A stretch of 64,000 bases of DNA, taken from contig JAKITS010000001.1 of the NCBI GenBank assembly GCA_021648085.1, positions 196,948 to 260,947 on the forward strand. The letters are read 5' to 3'. Positions 35,558 to 61,969 of the stretch are shown here, piece by piece; position 1 is the first letter of the stretch, and each line of letters starts with the position of its first letter. A program made the translations under genes and the position numbers. Origin of the DNA: Candidatus Magasanikiibacteriota bacterium. GTDB taxonomy: Bacteria; Patescibacteriota; Patescibacteriia; Magasanikbacterales; UBA922. A model generated the notes under the pieces. That model had not been told where the DNA came from and did no database searches. It saw only the letters and a list, made by a program, of their open reading frames with translations.

Positions 35558-38500
35558 ATGGGTGGTGAATATAACAATTTAGTTTTGGAGTATCTTAATA
35601 ATGTTCAAAAGATATTAGATACTGGAGATGCACGTGAGCATACTTATAGATCTGATTTCAAGATATTGATTGAAAGTTTAGTTTCAAATATTCAGGCAAT
35701 AAATGAGCCAGCCTATACAGGTGGAAATGCGCCTGATTTTTTGTTTAAAAAAGGTGATACACCAATTGCTTATGCAGAGTGCAAGGATGTGACGGTAGAT
35801 ATAAAAAATACAGATACACAAAAACAGGCAAAACGTTATGCAGATGCTTTTGGGAAAATTTTACTTACAAATTATTATGATTTTCAATTTATTCCAGAAG
35901 AGGGAGAAAAAATATCTGTTTCAATTGCGGTAAAAGAGGAAAATAAAATTGTACCAACAGAAGAAAATTTTGATAAATTCGTAAATTTGATTCAGGATTA
36001 TATAACTCCGTCTTATAGAACAATTAAATCTGCAAAAAGATTGGCAGAAATAATGGCAAGTAAAGCGCGGATTATTCGTGACAATGCTTTGGCTTCACTT
36101 AGTGAAAATAAAGACTCAGACATTTTTGCTCAATACGAATCATTTAAACAAGTTCTTATTCGTGATCTTTCGGAAAATGAGTTTGCGGATATGTATGCTC
36201 AAACTCTTGTTTATGGGTTGTTTGTGGCTCGTTATTATGATAAAACAGAGAAAGATTTTTCTCGTCACGAAGCTCAAGATTTATTACCTTCATCCAATCC
36301 ACTTTTGAAAAAGTTTTTTGGACATGTGGCTGGCACAGATTATGATCCCAAAATTGCGTGGTTGGTAGATAGTTTGATAGAAACTTATTCGTCTACAAGT
36401 GTAGCATATATAATGCACAAAGAGTTTGAGAAAAAACAAAAAGATCCTGTTCTTCATTTTTATGAAACTTTTTTGACTAGTTATGACAAAGGACTTCGTA
36501 AAAAAAGAGGAGTGTATTATACGCCCGAGCCGGTAGTTTCTTTTATTGTTCGTAGTGTGGACCAGATTTTAAAAACTAAATTTGGTTTAAGTAAAGGACT
36601 TGCTGATACCACAAAAATAGAATATAAAGCCAAAGTTCAAGGAGAAGATGGTAGAACAAAAGATAACGTAAAAAGGATAATAAAACAAACATATAAAGTA
36701 CAAATTCTAGATCCTGCGGTAGGAACTGGTACATTTTTAAATGAAGTAATTCATGAAATACACAAAAAATTTGTTGGACAAGAAGGTCAGTGGGATTCTT
36801 ATGTTCGAGATAGCTTACTTTCGCGTTTGCACGGTTTTGAGCTGATGATGGCAAGTTATACTATGGCTCACCTTAAACTTGGGATTACGCTAAAAGAACT
36901 TGGTTATAAAGGAGATGAAAGGCTGTCTGTATGGCTTACTAATAGCTTAGAAGGTGCAATAGATAAAATACCCGATCTTTTTATGGGGCAATGGCTAACA
37001 AAAGAATCAAACCAAGCTTCAAAAATTAAATCTGAAATGCCAATTATGGTTGTGTTGGGTAATCCTCCTTATTCTGGTGAAAGTTCTAATAAAAATTATA
37101 AAGGACATAATGTTTATAAAGTAGAACCGGGAGGGAATCAAAAACTTCAAGAGCGAAATTCGAAATGGCTTAACGATGATTATGTAAAATTTATTCGTTT
37201 TGCTGAAAATCAAATAGAAAAAACGGGAGAAGGAATTGTAAGCTTTATCACACCTCATGGATATTTAGATAATCCAACTTTCAGAGGTATGCGTTGGCAT
37301 TTAATGGAAACTTTTAGTGAAATTTATGTTTTAGATTTGCATGGGAATGCAAATAAAAACGAGACAACTTCTGAAGGAGGAAAAGATGAAAATGTCTTTG
37401 GAATTAAAACAGGAACTTCTATAATTTTTGCAATAAAAAATAAAAATTCAAAAAACAAAACTGCAAAAGTTTACCATGCTGATTTTTATGGAAAACAAAA
37501 TAAAAAATATAATTTATTAAATGAAAATAATTGGGAATCTATAAAATGGAAAAAATTATCTCCAAATAAACCAAATCTTTATTTTATACCGTTTAATAAC
37601 GAGTTGAAAAAAGAATATAATGAAGGTTTTTCAATTGTAGATTTAATGGAAACAAATTCAGTAGGTATTGTGACTTCTCGCGATAAATTTATTATCAATA
37701 ATTCAAGAGAAAAACTTATAATTAAAATAAAAGATTTTTTAATGCTTGATCCTGATAAAGCAAAACAAAAATATAATTTACGAGAAAACCAAAACTGGAA
37801 AATTATAAAGGCACAAAAACATATTTTTGATGAAAAAAATCTTCAAAAAATTTCCTATCGCCCGTTTGATAATAGGTGGATATATTATCATAATGATTTT
37901 ATCGAGCGTTCTAGAAAAGAAACAATGAAACATTTTAATAATAAAAATAATGTAGGATTAGTTTTGTGTAGGCAGGTTAAAGCTGGTAAATCATATCAAC
38001 ATAATTTTATAACTAACAATATTACAGAATCAACATTGGTTTCTAATAAAACATCAGAAATTGGATATGTATTTCCTTTATATTCTTATGTAAATGATAG
38101 CATCAAAAATTATAATTTTAACATAGACATAATAGGAGAAATTAAAAATAAAGTTGGAGCCACTTTAGTATCACGTAGTTCAAATAATCCAACTCTACAA
38201 ATTACTGATGGTAGTATTTTTACACCAGAAAATATTTTGGATTATATTTATGCAGTTCTTCATTCTCCAAAATATCGTGAAAAATACAAAGAATTTTTGA
38301 AAATAGATTTCCCCCGTGTTCCATATCCAGAAAATAAGCAAAAATTTTGGAATTTAGTTGGGTTAGGAAAAGAATTGAGAGAATTGCATTTATTAGAATC
38401 TCCAAAAGTTTCAAATTTTATCACAACTTTCCCAGAAAGTGGTTCAAATAAAGTTGAAAAGAAATATCCAAAATACGAAGATGAAAAAGTATTTATAAAT

Positions 38501-38692
38501 TATACTCAATATTTTGGCAATGTTCCAGAAGTTGCCTGGAACTTCTACATCGGCGGATACCAACCAGCCCAAAAATGGCTCAAAGACCGCCGAGAACGAG
38601 AACTAAGCAATGAAGACATAGATCACTACCAAGAAATGATAGTCTCCCTAACCGAAACCCACCGAATTATGCAGGAAATTGATAAAGTTTAA
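35558..38692 (+). CDS. Type IIL/IIG restriction-modification enzyme (MmeI-like; fused PD-ExK nuclease, N6-adenine methyltransferase and specificity domain)
   Basis: N-terminal D..ExK (NAPDFLFKKGDTPIAYAECKD), AdoMet motif I ILDPAVGTGTFL, motif IV VLGNPPYSG, about 400-aa C-terminal target-recognition region; no helicase domain. Confidence 0.75.
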   Translation: MGGEYNNLVLEYLNNVQKILDTGDAREHTYRSDFKILIESLVSNIQAINEPAYTGGNAPDFLFKKGDTPIAYAECKDVTVDIKNTDTQKQAKRYADAFGKILLTNYYDFQFIPEEGEKISVSIAVKEENKIVPTEENFDKFVNLIQDYITPSYRTIKSAKRLAEIMASKARIIRDNALASLSENKDSDIFAQYESFKQVLIRDLSENEFADMYAQTLVYGLFVARYYDKTEKDFSRHEAQDLLPSSNPLLKKFFGHVAGTDYDPKIAWLVDSLIETYSSTSVAYIMHKEFEKKQKDPVLHFYETFLTSYDKGLRKKRGVYYTPEPVVSFIVRSVDQILKTKFGLSKGLADTTKIEYKAKVQGEDGRTKDNVKRIIKQTYKVQILDPAVGTGTFLNEVIHEIHKKFVGQEGQWDSYVRDSLLSRLHGFELMMASYTMAHLKLGITLKELGYKGDERLSVWLTNSLEGAIDKIPDLFMGQWLTKESNQASKIKSEMPIMVVLGNPPYSGESSNKNYKGHNVYKVEPGGNQKLQERNSKWLNDDYVKFIRFAENQIEKTGEGIVSFITPHGYLDNPTFRGMRWHLMETFSEIYVLDLHGNANKNETTSEGGKDENVFGIKTGTSIIFAIKNKNSKNKTAKVYHADFYGKQNKKYNLLNENNWESIKWKKLSPNKPNLYFIPFNNELKKEYNEGFSIVDLMETNSVGIVTSRDKFIINNSREKLIIKIKDFLMLDPDKAKQKYNLRENQNWKIIKAQKHIFDEKNLQKISYRPFDNRWIYYHNDFIERSRKETMKHFNNKNNVGLVLCRQVKAGKSYQHNFITNNITESTLVSNKTSEIGYVFPLYSYVNDSIKNYNFNIDIIGEIKNKVGATLVSRSSNNPTLQITDGSIFTPENILDYIYAVLHSPKYREKYKEFLKIDFPRVPYPENKQKFWNLVGLGKELRELHLLESPKVSNFITTFPESGSNKVEKKYPKYEDEKVFINYTQYFGNVPEVAWNFYIGGYQPAQKWLKDRRERELSNEDIDHYQEMIVSLTETHRIMQEIDKV

Positions 38693-39317
38693 AATTGATA
38701 TGAAAAAAGAATTATATTATTTTCCTAATTGGGTTATAATTGACTATCTCTCCCATATTACTTCTAATAAAATACAAGATACTGATAATATTGAAATGAT
38801 ATGTTCTTTGGTCATGTCTAAATTTTGTGAAAGGCAATTTGGAAAAGAATGTTTTATAGGATTTGAGGTAAAGGAAAGTTATAAAAGAAAATTACCAAAA
38901 GATAATCTTATGTCTGAGCAAGATTTTATCAATCTTATAAAAGATGGTTTTTTTAAAGATACTCCAATAGATTTTTCTATTGCAATTCCTTCTAAAAAAG
39001 GCAGAATTGATTTTCAATTAAAAAGATTTGGGAAATCTTTAAAACAAAATAATACTAATGATTTAATTAATTATATTAACGACCTTTCAAAAGAATATGG
39101 AGATACTGATTGTAATTTAATAATACTCTGTGAATCTTGTGAAGTGAGTCCATTGACTGTATCTCAAAAAATTTGTATTAAAAATTACCCATTTAAAAAA
39201 ATAATTTTAATAGATGTGGAGGGGTCAAAATATATTTATTATCATGGTATATGGTCAGATAAGGGGGAAAGTGGAACATCAAGATTTAATATGCAAACGA
39301 TGAAATTTGATTATTAA
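38679..39317 (+). CDS. hypothetical protein, co-operonic with the RM enzyme
   Basis: 212 aa; start overlaps RM stop by 14 nt (alternative Met 38700); no recognised motif (weak D..EVK possibility). Confidence 0.5.
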   Translation: MIKFKIDMKKELYYFPNWVIIDYLSHITSNKIQDTDNIEMICSLVMSKFCERQFGKECFIGFEVKESYKRKLPKDNLMSEQDFINLIKDGFFKDTPIDFSIAIPSKKGRIDFQLKRFGKSLKQNNTNDLINYINDLSKEYGDTDCNLIILCESCEVSPLTVSQKICIKNYPFKKIILIDVEGSKYIYYHGIWSDKGESGTSRFNMQTMKFDY

Positions 39318-39332
39318 GGTTTTTTAAATAAT

Positions 39333-40067
39333 ATGAAATGTAGACTATGTAAAAAAGACAAAAGTTTAATAAAAGCACATATCATACCTAAAACTTTTTA
39401 TGATTTTCTTTATCCGTCAGATGATAATAGTTCTTTAATAATGGTTAGGAAAAATAAACATATTAAAAGAAGACCAGTTGGAAGTTATGACATGAATATA
39501 TTGTGTAAAGATTGCGATAGTGATCTTGGTTTATATGATGAATATGGTAAAAAAGTTTTTTTAGAAAAAAAATTAGAAAAACATCCACAGACTGAAAGCG
39601 CGTTTATAATTAGAGATGTGGATTATGAAAAATTAAGTTTTTTCATAATTTCCTTATTGTGGAGAGCTGGTATATCTTCTTTGGATGAGTATGGGTTTGT
39701 TCAATTAAATAAATATGAGGAAATATTGAGGGACATAATCTATAATAAAAAATATAAAAAGTTAATAGATTATCCGTTTATTATTACTCAATTTGAAAAA
39801 GATGGTTTAGATGGGATTGTGGATAAAAGTTTTCTTAATCCAGTTAAGTTATATATGGATAAAAGACGTTTTTATCTTTTTTATTTACCAAATTGTTATA
39901 GTATTTATATTAAAGTTGATAAACAAAAAATGCAAAGTAGTTTTTCAAAAATAGCTTTTAAAAAAGATGGTAATTTATTTATAATTAATAGGGGAAAGTA
40001 TAAAAACTCTAAAGAATTTAAATTAATTGTGGATATAGTTAAATCTGGATTTACGCCACAAACATAG
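39333..40067 (+). CDS. HNH-family endonuclease domain protein with about 180-aa C-terminal domain
   Basis: CRLCKKDKSLIKAHIIPK ... NILCKDCDSDLG = CxxC..H(I)IP..N..LCxxC HNH zinc-finger pattern; 15 nt after preceding gene. Confidence 0.6.
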   Translation: MKCRLCKKDKSLIKAHIIPKTFYDFLYPSDDNSSLIMVRKNKHIKRRPVGSYDMNILCKDCDSDLGLYDEYGKKVFLEKKLEKHPQTESAFIIRDVDYEKLSFFIISLLWRAGISSLDEYGFVQLNKYEEILRDIIYNKKYKKLIDYPFIITQFEKDGLDGIVDKSFLNPVKLYMDKRRFYLFYLPNCYSIYIKVDKQKMQSSFSKIAFKKDGNLFIINRGKYKNSKEFKLIVDIVKSGFTPQT

Positions 40068-40202
40068 AATTGATTAAAAAATATGAATACAACAATAATA
40101 CAATCAGCACCAAATCAATATAATATAATGTTAATGAATTACGCAGAAATTGTTGAAAAGACTAATTAGCAATTAAGTTTTTGGTTTAATCCTTATGCTA
40201 TT

Positions 40203-40676
40203 ATGGTAGCTGTTTTGGCTGTACTGTTTACTATTGGAGCGATTATTGCTGCGATTATTATTCATCTAAATAATAAAAAGCACAAACAGAGGACGGAAGA
40301 CTTTTTTAAAGAACAAGAGATAATTTATAAAAAAAGACAAGAAGAGATTAAAAAAGATTTTGATATTTTAATTAAAGTAAAAGAAAAAGAATATAGAAAA
40401 GCAGAAAAAAAAGACAGAAAAGAAATAAAAAAAGAAATTATAGAATTGAAGAAAGATAAAATATCCATAGGTTTTTATAGGATACCCGAAGCCGTGGAAG
40501 ATAGCATTAATAATATTAGAAGTAAATATGGAGTTGGATATAGAATTTGTAAAACTAAATGTTTTGGCTGTAAAGAAAATTTTCAATATAAAGATGAAAC
40601 AATAAACAATATTGTACAGGTGGTAGGGAGTAAAAAAGTTTTCTGTCCTTATTGTGGGGCTGAAAATTTTATATAA
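40203..40676 (+). CDS. membrane-anchored coiled-coil protein with C-terminal zinc ribbon
   Basis: N-terminal TM, K/E-rich coiled coil, CKTKCFGC..x20..CPYCG. Confidence 0.5.
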   Translation: MVAVLAVLFTIGAIIAAIIIHLNNKKHKQRTEDFFKEQEIIYKKRQEEIKKDFDILIKVKEKEYRKAEKKDRKEIKKEIIELKKDKISIGFYRIPEAVEDSINNIRSKYGVGYRICKTKCFGCKENFQYKDETINNIVQVVGSKKVFCPYCGAENFI

Positions 40677-40725: not shown

Positions 40726-40869
40726 CTACTTTTTCTGTTTCTTTTTTGGTGCACGCTGTGACATTGCACTTCCTGCTGCTGTTTTAGAATGTTTACTTGT
40801 TCTTTTATCTCTAAGAACTTTGCTTGCAGCTTTGCCAGCTTTTTTGCTGGTTTTTCTGTTTTTTGCCAT
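40726..40869 (-). CDS. small lysine-rich basic protein (47 aa), not in ORF track
   Basis: Reverse-strand ATG 40867-40869 to TAG 40726-40728: MAKNRKTSKKAGKAASKVLRDKRTSKHSKTAAGSAMSQRAPKKKQKK; followed by terminator hairpin. Confidence 0.45.
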   Translation of the reverse strand: MAKNRKTSKKAGKAASKVLRDKRTSKHSKTAAGSAMSQRAPKKKQKK

Positions 40870-41022
40870 AATCTTTGTATTACAGATTAATAAAACTACC
40901 ATTTCAACTTTTAAGCATATTTTTTATGTATCCACGACAAACATAAAAAAGTGCAATAGTAATGATTTTAGTATATAAAGGATTGGTTTAAATGTCAAGA
41001 AAAATAAGACTTACTTAATTAT

Positions 41023-41049
41023 TGACAAAATAATATTTTATGGTATAAT
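41023..41049 (+). promoter_or_regulatory. putative sigma-70 promoter of lexA-like gene
   Basis: TTGACA(41023-41028)-15/16 bp-TATAAT(41044-41049). Confidence 0.4.
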
Positions 41050-41078: not shown

Positions 41079-41849
41079 ATGCACCATCTTCAAGAAAAAA
41101 TTCTCAATCTTTTGGAAACAAAAGATATTTCTGGTTTATCACTTAGAGAAATTGCCAAATTGATAAACGAAACAGGAAGTCCGCAAAAAATAAAACATCA
41201 TTTGGATCAGCTCGCAAAAAGAGGGCTTATTTTTGTGGACAAAAAAAATAAAGAAATTAAAAAAATAAAACCCGGAATGGACAAAAAAACTCAAATTATT
41301 TCTTTGCCTATTTTGGGAAGTGCAAATTGTGGTGTAGCGACATATTTTGCAGAAAATCATGTAGAAGGATATTTGAAAGTGACCAAAAATATTTTGGGCG
41401 AACTTGCCAAAAGAATCGAAAGCTTGTTTGTGTTACGTGCAGTTGGCTCTTCTATGAATCGTGCTAATATTCGTGGAAATAGTATTGAAGATGGAGATTA
41501 TGTGATTGTGGATAGTGAAAAAAAAGAGCTAGAAAGTGGTTTATATATGGTTTCTATTATTAATGATGTCGCAAATATAAAAAAAGTTTTTTTTGACAAA
41601 AAAAATAGGCAAATAGTTTTAATGTCTGAGTCAAACCAAGATATTACACCAATATATATACACAAAAAAGATTTAAATGAATATTTAATTGCTGGAACTG
41701 TGGTAAAAATTATGAAAAATCCCACAGAAGAAAATTTAAATATGTTTAGCGATATTTCTGCAATTGATTCTTTAAAAAATCTAGGTTCTTTGTCCAGTGA
41801 GGAAGAATCTTATTATAATAATGCTGATAATTTTAAGAAATATGCGTAA
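41079..41849 (+). CDS. LexA-like repressor (winged-helix DNA-binding domain + S24 peptidase domain)
   Basis: N-terminus LSLREIAKLINETGSPQKIKHHLDQLAKRGLIF resembles LexA DNA-binding domain; C-terminal AVGSSM..DGDYVIV..IKKV matches the S24 Ser/Lys dyad region; acidic C-terminal tail. Confidence 0.65.
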   Translation: MHHLQEKILNLLETKDISGLSLREIAKLINETGSPQKIKHHLDQLAKRGLIFVDKKNKEIKKIKPGMDKKTQIISLPILGSANCGVATYFAENHVEGYLKVTKNILGELAKRIESLFVLRAVGSSMNRANIRGNSIEDGDYVIVDSEKKELESGLYMVSIINDVANIKKVFFDKKNRQIVLMSESNQDITPIYIHKKDLNEYLIAGTVVKIMKNPTEENLNMFSDISAIDSLKNLGSLSSEEESYYNNADNFKKYA

Positions 41850-42195
41850 TCCGGATTTGAAACAAGGTGATATTTATTTAGTTGATTTTAGTGAAAATTC
41901 AGTTGGGCATGAGTATCAGAAAAAACGTCCTGCAATTATTATTCAATCAAATTTACAAATAAAAAAGTCAAATCTTGTGACAATTATGCCATTATCTACA
42001 AAATTGGATAAAGCTTTAAAAGAAGATATTTTGGTTGAAAAAGATAATAATAATTTATTATTACATGATTCTGTGATAAAAGTGCAACATATTATTTCTT
42101 TTGATCCTGTTAGATTTTCTCATAAAATTGGAGAGGTAAAAAAAGAAGTTCTTAGTGAAATTAAGAACTATTTAACCAAACACTTTGATTTGTAA
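41842..42195 (+). CDS. MazF/PemK family toxin (endoribonuclease)
   Basis: MRNPDLKQGDIYLVDFSENSVGHEYQKKRPAIIIQSN..VTIMPLSTK classic PemK/MazF signature; ORF track start 41797 but Met at 41842 overlaps the lexA-like stop by 8 nt (ATGCGTAA). Confidence 0.7.
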   Translation: MRNPDLKQGDIYLVDFSENSVGHEYQKKRPAIIIQSNLQIKKSNLVTIMPLSTKLDKALKEDILVEKDNNNLLLHDSVIKVQHIISFDPVRFSHKIGEVKKEVLSEIKNYLTKHFDL

Positions 42196-61543: not shown

Positions 61544-61564
61544 TGTCAATTATTTAAATTGACA
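61544..61564. promoter_or_regulatory. perfect 8-5-8 palindrome (TGTCAATT-attta-AATTGACA), candidate operator
   Basis: Seen directly; overlaps a TTGACA hexamer immediately upstream of the pentapeptide-repeat gene. Confidence 0.35.
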
Positions 61565-61576
61565 ATAGCTTTGGAG

Positions 61577-61969
61577 ATGAAAATGGCAGACGAGAGATTG
61601 GTTGAACGAATTTTTAAATTTGGTGGTGAAAAAATTATTGAAGAACACAGAAAAAACTCAGCACCTTCTATAATTATAGATTTAATGGGTGCAAAATTGG
61701 GAGGTGCAGATCTAAGAGGTACGGATTTGTCAGGAATATATTTGGTGGAAACAGATTTTGGACATGCAAATTTAGCCGGTGCAGACCTTTCAGACTCTTT
61801 TTTAGATCGTGCAGATTTTACTATGGCAAATTTAACCAATGTAAAAGTTGATCCTGCAAAACTTGCGGAATCACATTTTACTCAAGCTCGGATGAGCAAT
61901 AAACTTTTTAAGGATACTTTGCTTGCATTTGAAGAAATGCGTAAGCGCAGAGGTTTGAATAAGAAATAA
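61577..61969 (+). CDS. pentapeptide-repeat protein
   Basis: GADLRGTDLSGIYLVETDFGHANLAGADLSDSFLDRADFTMANLTNV; ORF track start 61559 is TTG; ATG at 61577 (MKMADER) preferred. Confidence 0.7.
   Translation: MKMADERLVERIFKFGGEKIIEEHRKNSAPSIIIDLMGAKLGGADLRGTDLSGIYLVETDFGHANLAGADLSDSFLDRADFTMANLTNVKVDPAKLAESHFTQARMSNKLFKDTLLAFEEMRKRRGLNKK

Follow-up and report, generated by a model that had tools for sequence, protein, structure and literature searches.

A LexA-like repressor as the likely antitoxin of a MazF toxin in Patescibacteria

The DNA analysed here (hereafter the window) is a stretch of 64,000 nucleotides (32% G+C) from contig JAKITS010000001.1 of a Candidatus Magasanikiibacteriota bacterium (Patescibacteria; assembly GCA_021648085.1), in which a gene for a LexA-like repressor overlaps the start of a gene for a MazF/PemK endoribonuclease toxin on the same strand (Table 1; coordinates are those of the window). 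A preliminary description of this locus had reported the 8-nt overlap, a promoter at 41023-41049, a LexA-type N-terminus followed by an S24 peptidase domain with its Ser/Lys pair, an acidic C-terminal tail, and the lack of any small antitoxin open reading frame (ORF), and as an observation it turned out to be correct in all details. The promoter agrees with the consensus at every position and includes a TG extension, and we read the two genes as co-transcribed from this strong promoter and translationally coupled. A hidden third gene was looked for and rejected, as none is conserved next to the pair among 42 related loci; on the forward strand of the window, the only further ORFs of at least 25 aa in or next to the pair are short out-of-frame ones within the two genes. 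The small basic ORF upstream on the reverse strand (Table 1) matches no family and has no counterpart beside the pair in the other loci.

Table 1. Features of the LexA-like/MazF locus, with positions in the window.
Feature	Position	Strand	Remarks
LexA-like repressor/antitoxin gene	41079..41849	+	256 aa; stop included in coordinates
Predicted LexA-type winged helix-turn-helix domain, about residues 1-70	41079..41288	+	AlphaFold2 and Foldseek
Predicted self-cleavage site, Cys84-Gly85 (codons TGT GGT)	41328..41333	+	Aligns with LexA Ala84-Gly85
Catalytic Ser125 of S24 domain	41451..41453	+	Aligns with LexA Ser119; invariant in 108 homologs
Catalytic Lys168 of S24 domain	41580..41582	+	Aligns with LexA Lys156; invariant in 108 homologs
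C-terminal tail, proposed MazF-binding antitoxin module (residues 215-256)	41721..41846	+	Motif, homology and co-occurrence with MazF
Gene overlap, ATGCGTAA	41842-41849	+	8 nt; taken directly from the sequence
MazF/PemK endoribonuclease toxin gene	41842..42195	+	117 aa; ATG start; stop included in coordinates
Sigma-70-type promoter of the two-gene operon	41022..41049	+	TTGACA, 16 nt, TG-TATAAT; 12/12 consensus match
Inverted repeat, TGTCAAGAA / TTATTGACA, 17 nt between arms	40993..41027		Candidate operator
Small, very basic ORF, 47-58 aa, MAKNRKTSKKAGKAASKVLRDKRTSKH…	40726-40902	-	Divergent promoter 40998->40970, 11/12 consensus

The upstream protein is recognised as an S24 peptidase (Pfam Peptidase_S24, PF00717, E=2.1e-14) and resembles LexA over residues 5-214 (NCBIfam TIGR00498 lexA, E=5e-20, 72 bits vs. 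a cutoff of 110.95), with a weak, sub-cutoff match to the LexA DNA-binding domain (Pfam LexA_DNA_bind, PF01726, E=0.0073). Phmmer aligns its residues 24-214 with E. coli LexA (E=2.8e-6) and thereby pairs the predicted cleavage site and both catalytic residues, Ser125 in a GSSM and Lys168 in a NIKKV motif, with their LexA equivalents; the alignment stops at residue 214, four residues short of the LexA C-terminus, and the LexA-like protein continues for ~40 residues more. An AlphaFold2 (AF2) model built on 108 homologs (mean predicted local distance difference test score, pLDDT, of 80.7) places with confidence both a three-helix and hairpin N-domain (helices 3-14, 22-28 and 35-47, strands 51-54 and 59-62) and an S24 barrel, and the best Foldseek matches to this model are full-length LexA structures (3jso, 3k2z and 8trg, E=2.6e-12), ahead of lambda CI and UmuD. 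Across the 108 homologs Cys84 is invariant and Gly85 conserved in at least 90%, and Cys-Gly is the natural cleavage site of UmuD. The invariance of Cys84, Ser125 and Lys168 argues for retained self-cleavage, predicted to fall between Cys84 and Gly85. No second LexA is encoded inside the 64-kb window.

Beyond the LexA-like core lies a tail of about 40 residues with 8 acidic and 3 basic residues (residues 214-256). Over 108 sequences its consensus is MKxPDELxx(F/W)RDASAxDILKDLGPISKEExDYYxNL, with D230 and Y246 invariant. AF2 renders the tail (residues 217-256) as low-confidence helices (pLDDT 50-74) while the body of the protein is confident, as might be expected for a segment that folds on a partner. 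In the window, the tail ends in YYNNADNFKKYA where the consensus has YYxNL; the same extended ending also occurs in other homologs (P0005), which makes it a subclade feature.

The downstream protein is a clear member of the MazF family (Pfam PemK_toxin, PF02452, E=1.8e-23, 83 bits vs. a cutoff of 23.1), and phmmer matches it to the solved MazFs of S. aureus, B. subtilis and M. tuberculosis. Its Arg29 (codon 41926-41928) falls, in the alignment, on the Arg conserved in the S. aureus and B. subtilis enzymes and is invariant in 24 paired MazFs, at least 90% of which have Thr at position 52; there the window has Ser with Thr53 adjacent, and hence reads PLST vs. PLTS in the relatives. The preliminary description had raised the case of a catalytically dead toxin, and we find the catalytic Arg and Thr/Ser positions kept, so that the window MazF is apparently active.

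Broadly, the pairing of the two genes is conserved well beyond the window, a co-occurrence that the preliminary description had proposed to look for and that we find in other genomes, with overlapping genes and varied flanks. The LexA-like protein has more than 1000 relatives, the best 120 of which are all 235-302 aa long and cover 93-100% of the query, tail included; all three homologs looked up on their contigs had PemK directly downstream (overlap of 4 or 22 nt), in differing flanks. In a survey that took one genome for each GTDB species, 218 relatives turned up; 80 of them were retained, and the ORFs of their loci searched with both window proteins. These 80 comprise 38 tailed proteins, 36 tailless ones that end shortly past the S24 domain (…VIKKPK), 4 with a remodelled tail and 2 cut by contig ends. 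A full-length MazF reading frame directly follows the tailed gene in 33 of 38 cases (among these, no canonical start codon was found in L014, and L009 differs at the C-terminus); in three more the MazF is frameshifted, truncated or a remnant (L020, L015, L042), in L029 the contig ends 81 nt into it, and L023 has none. An intact, decaying or contig-cut MazF is thus directly downstream of 37 of the 38 tailed genes, and none of this subfamily lies within ~4 kb on each side of the 36 tailless ones. Seen from the toxin, all 42 MazF matches in 87 loci (L001-L086 plus the window) directly follow a tailed LexA-like gene. The four relatives with a remodelled tail (L038, L039, L041, L044) have no MazF, and their tail is shorter with a basic end (…SSAGDILKYGKPI..VDY..KKKK).

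When a neighbour-joining tree is built from the core alone, leaving the tail aside, the tailed proteins group in a single clade, inside which the four remodelled-tail proteins are nested. Across conserved pairs, identity has fallen to ~45-65% for the repressor and 45-60% for MazF, and the two genes mostly overlap by 4 nt, with some overlapping by 22 nt, abutting or separated by 5-9 nt. This pattern indicates a single acquisition of tail and MazF, which then stayed together over deep divergence; where MazF was long lost, the tail changed. No assembly among the 80 kept of 218 loci had both a tailed and a tailless copy, which weakly suggests, as a rough inference from that sample, that the tailed LexA-like gene is a replacement rather than an extra copy.

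Two observations concern the tailless members of the family. Although the family is otherwise specific to Patescibacteria, some reside in metagenome-assembled genomes assigned to unrelated phyla (L068, on the 2.3-Mb Nitrospirales chromosome OX638327; L072 and L081 from Pyrinomonadaceae; L085, L086 and L053), which reflects either horizontal transfer or mis-binning. Others, from Yanofskybacteria and relatives (L055-L058, L061, L073, L074), carry a different, short and basic C-terminal extension, KPKTAWSKFKKFVYRDSPNYQ.

The second line of evidence comes from the toxin. Searching with the window MazF retrieved 24 relatives, and three more distant ones were inspected on their contigs. The first, found independently (48% identical to the window's), again has an S24 protein upstream. 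The second (49% identical) is preceded, with a 4-nt overlap, by a 97-aa protein, whose C-terminal part contains …WEEAAIEDMNKYLPPLTKEEHDYYMSL… and ends in …FKMWEEAAIEDMNKYLPPLTKEEHDYYMSLAPLKDKNP. The third (54% identical) is preceded by a 282-aa protein with an XRE-type helix-turn-helix (HTH) and a SocA_Panacea domain (L093:1642-2490), with C-terminus …WEGAAALDLISQLGPISREEAEYYEKL, …RKIWEGAAALDLISQLGPISREEAEYYEKL. Against the LexA-like alignment, hhalign matched both proteins in the tail only (97-aa protein, E=1.2e-9 over 45 columns; XRE-Panacea protein, E=2.2e-7 over 35 columns).

The 97-aa protein is one of 77 members of a family of small proteins (79-103 aa; P0145-P0221) from Patescibacteria/Peregrinibacteria, which matches the LexA-like tails in a profile-profile comparison as well (hhalign, E=2.3e-9). 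PemK was directly downstream in the three members checked, with a 4-nt overlap in two and abutting in the third, and the Joint Genome Institute labels some members as antitoxins of toxin-antitoxin stability systems. Their N-terminal part of ~42 residues looks Phd/YefM-like by eye; Pfam found nothing in it, and its best database match, VapB46, is non-significant (E=0.43). The MazFs behind the LexA-like, small and XRE-Panacea proteins cluster closely as a single subfamily, at a wide distance from the nearest plasmid MazF. The nearest annotated MazF (39% identity) is that of a Campylobacter coli plasmid, and a likeness of the tail to its 81-aa antitoxin was considered and rejected, the C-terminus being dissimilar.

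The simplest reading of a tail common to three unrelated proteins, which otherwise share nothing but a place directly before one MazF subfamily, is that the tail is a toxin-binding module. Most likely, then, to judge from these comparisons, this portable module binds MazF, and the role of antitoxin falls to the LexA-like protein. As the MazF-associated tail follows the Panacea domain in the L093 protein, that domain may not be the toxin-binding part there.

Overall, we consider it likely that the pair is a two-gene type II toxin-antitoxin operon whose antitoxin is a full LexA-type repressor and not a small MazE-like protein. The preliminary description had proposed that the LexA-like protein acts as antitoxin through its acidic tail, and the co-occurrence of tail and MazF together with the homology of the tail argues for this. 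Its further suggestion that the tail does so as in MazE does not hold as a relationship: the tail has no detectable similarity to MazE and is related instead to those that end the small upstream proteins and the XRE-Panacea protein. The arrangement of tailed LexA-like protein and MazF is, by our homology searches, widespread in Patescibacteria, and the core of the interpretation appears to hold, namely that a LexA-type self-cleaving repressor took over the antitoxin role for MazF by means of a portable tail.

Such a system might operate as follows. A MazE dimer holds two MazF dimers, and a LexA-like dimer would have the same geometry, offering two tails that would each occupy a MazF dimer and block RNA cleavage; the LexA-like/MazF complex would sit on its own promoter and repress it. 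DNA damage, or another signal that activates RecA, would then induce the self-cut at Cys84-Gly85, which would remove the DNA-binding domain and derepress the operon. The preliminary description had autocleavage itself releasing MazF, and this is not what the predicted cut implies: because Cys84-Gly85 lies between the DNA-binding and S24 domains, the tail would remain with the C-terminal fragment. The two fragments of E. coli LexA are quickly degraded once it is cleaved. The tail-bearing fragment would have to be degraded in like manner, after which stable MazF would be freed, RNA cut and growth arrested. The sequence from DNA damage through self-cleavage to toxin release is a plausible hypothesis.

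The putative operator is the inverted repeat upstream of the pair (Table 1). Its right arm coincides with the -35 box of the LexA-like/MazF promoter and its left arm with that of the divergent promoter. Of 37 non-redundant upstream regions from tailed relatives, 31 have a TTGACA(A) box and 32 have TGTCAA(G/C); the latter also occurs in 29 of 41 upstream regions from tailless relatives, where ~1.7 would be expected. An SOS-box-like palindrome near the promoter had been among the features to look for in the preliminary description; no box of the E. coli or Gram-positive type is evident, and the TGTCAA/TTGACA elements upstream of LexA-like genes do not resemble those boxes.

Two further observations bear on these upstream regions. 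A perfect palindrome, TGTCAAT-TATTTAA-ATTGACA (61544-61564), stands directly before a gene for a pentapeptide-repeat protein (Qnr/MfpA-like, 61583-61969) in the window; its half-site is that of the motif before the LexA-like gene, so the repressor may have a second target here. DnaA-box-like sequences (TTATCCACA / TGTGGATAA) are very frequent upstream of LexA-like genes, tailed and tailless alike (L014, L029, L031, L038-L045, L049, L052, L054, L057, L059, L064, L069, L075, L076, L078), sometimes as palindromes around the -35 box, and are absent upstream of the window's own LexA-like gene.

Several points weigh against an antitoxin role of the LexA-like protein with cleavage as its trigger. The least secure step is the release of MazF, which would need the further degradation of the fragment. 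Binding of MazF by the tail is predicted indirectly, from co-variation with MazF and from tail homology. Given the single evolutionary origin of the tail, the 37-vs-0 split between tailed and tailless relatives does not amount to 37 independent events, and the independent comparative evidence consists of retention over deep divergence plus a few correlated losses. The LexA family models (Pfam LexA_DNA_bind and TIGR00498) score under their curated cutoffs, the end of the window's own tail deviates from the consensus, and its MazF has Ser52-Thr53 where the relatives have Thr52-Ser53. Finally, the TGTCAA half-site in the window could be explained as the divergent -35 box, so that the operator is only a candidate.

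The chief rival explanation takes the LexA-like part as a borrowed scaffold that serves for DNA binding and dimerisation only, in a conventional type II system where MazF, if released at all, is freed by Lon/Clp turnover of the tail or loss of the genes, and where S24 cleavage matters for a separate repressor function and not for the toxin. We regard it as possible but, on balance, doubtful. In its favour, the same tail occurs on the small upstream proteins and on the XRE-Panacea protein, scaffolds that lack any protease, the position of the cut, which keeps the tail on the C-terminal fragment, speaks for it as well, and the conservation of Ser125 and Lys168 would fit a role as SOS repressor equally, since tailless relatives keep the same motifs. 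However, cleavage must at least derepress the operon, and so shift the balance between a short-lived antitoxin and its toxin, and the rapid decay of both E. coli LexA fragments also counts against the irrelevance of the cut.

An alternative that concerns the biological role, and is compatible with the mechanism proposed here, is that the pair is an addiction or abortive-infection module of a defence island, triggered by phage and not by damage to the DNA of the cell itself, that stabilises or complements a Type ISP/IIG restriction-modification gene; we think this rather unlikely. A 1044-aa Type ISP/MmeI-like restriction-modification enzyme (Type_ISP_C, E=7e-85) is indeed encoded upstream on the same strand in the window (35558-38692), and the same kind of enzyme precedes the pair in ~5 independent relatives (L001, L006/L082, L011, L022, L027), a recurrence that hints at a defence-island setting. 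Bro-N and RhuM genes, families typical of prophages, antirepressors and mobile elements, likewise lie downstream in some relatives: directly 3' of the LexA-like gene in MazF-less ones (L023:4757-5563, L039:4780-5793, L038:4741-5841), and, for Bro-N, right behind MazF in L006 (4125-4937). Yet most loci have no nearby restriction gene and are flanked by housekeeping genes, and no PADLOC defence model meaningfully matches either protein (none at all for MazF, and only weak winged-helix-type matches for the LexA-like protein). The viral contigs of IMG/VR contain no tailed pair, only one tailless full-length relative and four matches to the N-domain alone, and hence give no sign of a phage-borne module.

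Between the restriction enzyme and the LexA-like gene of the window lie three forward-strand genes of unassigned function (38679-40676), encoding proteins of 212 aa, 244 aa (with a weak HNH-like N-terminus) and 157 aa (with a weak, sub-threshold putative zinc-finger match at its C-terminus). Locus L001, similar in other respects, lacks this stretch, which may be an insertion.

It is very unlikely, in our view, that MazF is merely SOS-regulated cargo of a lexA operon, silenced through transcriptional repression alone, with the tail in another role, for instance as a degradation signal or a structural element. LexA-controlled toxins do exist elsewhere, such as SymE and the dinB-linked yafNO, and repeated motifs accompany the strong promoter of the LexA-like gene; but the genes overlap, so that MazF is translated whenever the repressor is, the same tail ends the proteins immediately preceding the MazFs of this subfamily, and it is confined to loci with MazF, having been remodelled where MazF was lost. 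That the module is decaying in this particular genome, the divergent tail end (YYNNADNFKKYA and not YYxNL) and the Ser52-Thr53 swap (PLST, not PLTS) leaving MazF inactive or unbound, is hardly probable at all: decay is seen in some relatives (L015, L020, L042), but both reading frames of the window are intact with a clean overlap, the extended tail ending is shared with other homologs, and Arg29 and the other invariant MazF residues are kept.

If a LexA-type repressor is indeed the antitoxin, as we favour, the consequences reach beyond this locus. What switches type II toxins on in the cell is a long-running dispute, and here the antitoxin would be fused to a well-understood, signal-responsive and self-cleaving switch, which makes the trigger predictable (activated RecA, with a cut at Cys84-Gly85). 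Tentatively, and with less confidence than for the antitoxin role itself, one may go further and suppose that across a large Patescibacteria clade MazF has as its antitoxin the sole LexA of the cell, with RecA-triggered self-cleavage of this SOS master repressor hard-wired to toxin release. If true, the trigger of such a toxin-antitoxin system would be built in and defined in molecular terms, without dependence on the usual Lon/Clp decision, and in these minimal genomes the SOS response would necessarily bring on growth arrest or abortive infection. For many Patescibacteria, with very small genomes and few known stress responses, the LexA-like/MazF pair suggests that the DNA-damage response may include growth arrest at the RNA level. 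The short tail motif would moreover represent an exchangeable toxin-binding cassette, carried on LexA-like, small (79-103 aa) and XRE-Panacea scaffolds, and point to a modular evolution of antitoxins.

Searches of full-text literature, with subscription journals largely missing, turned up no account of MazF being paired with an antitoxin of LexA or S24 type; we thus know of no earlier description, and given this coverage one may exist. A comparative-genomics survey of type II systems brings in LexA only as an analogy for COG2856-Xre proteins (PMC2701414), and the main text of the NetFlax network paper does not mention LexA or S24. The nearest precedent is a Campylobacter Xre/HipA module for which the TADB database assigns an S24-LexA-like protein as antitoxin, which the authors present as a prediction only (PMC7826846); unlike our pair, its toxin is HipA and not MazF, and no toxin-binding element was identified.

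The closest functional counterparts of the pair are MazE-MazF and PemI-PemK (Kis-Kid), with which it shares a MazF/PemK-fold toxin with catalytic Arg and Thr/Ser, an antitoxin gene that lies upstream and overlaps, and an antitoxin made of a dimeric DNA-binding core and a flexible acidic C-terminal segment, the part that blocks the toxin in the known systems. The cores differ, however, being a ~50-residue AbrB/SpoVT or ribbon-helix-helix fold in MazE/PemI and a 215-residue winged-helix plus S24 autoprotease here, and the LexA-like protein has no detectable sequence similarity to MazE/PemI, its Pfam and NCBIfam matches being S24 and LexA only; it is not a MazE/PemI member, though it probably works like one. 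The antitoxin of the Campylobacter plasmid MazF (39% identical) is ribbon-helix-helix-like by eye, with an unrelated tail. Common ground with the small proteins (79-103 aa) lies in the tail motif (…(L/I)(S/T)xEExxYYxxL) and the MazF subfamily downstream, but these have neither a protease domain nor a built-in cleavage site.

In published Panacea systems, the Panacea domain itself is considered the neutraliser. The network of these PanA antitoxins is described elsewhere (PMC10440598); they resemble our case in that an XRE-HTH and SocA_Panacea protein with the same tail precedes a MazF (54% identical to the window's), and differ from it in their scaffold.

LexA itself, like UmuD, lambda CI and other S24 autoproteases, offers the same Ser/Lys pair and cleavage loop, with Cys-Gly as in UmuD, and probably the same two-domain fold, whereas the LexA-like protein has in addition a 40-residue toxin-associated tail and translational coupling to a toxin, and scores below the cutoffs of the LexA models. 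LexA-controlled toxins already include tisB and the LexA-regulated higBA of Caulobacter. Further examples are SOS-induced SymE and the dinB-linked yafNO module (PMC1891008, PMC7826846). These SOS-controlled toxins likewise tie the sensing of DNA damage to toxin expression, but there LexA comes from a separate gene and acts on transcription only, whereas in the operon described here repressor and antitoxin would be one and the same protein.

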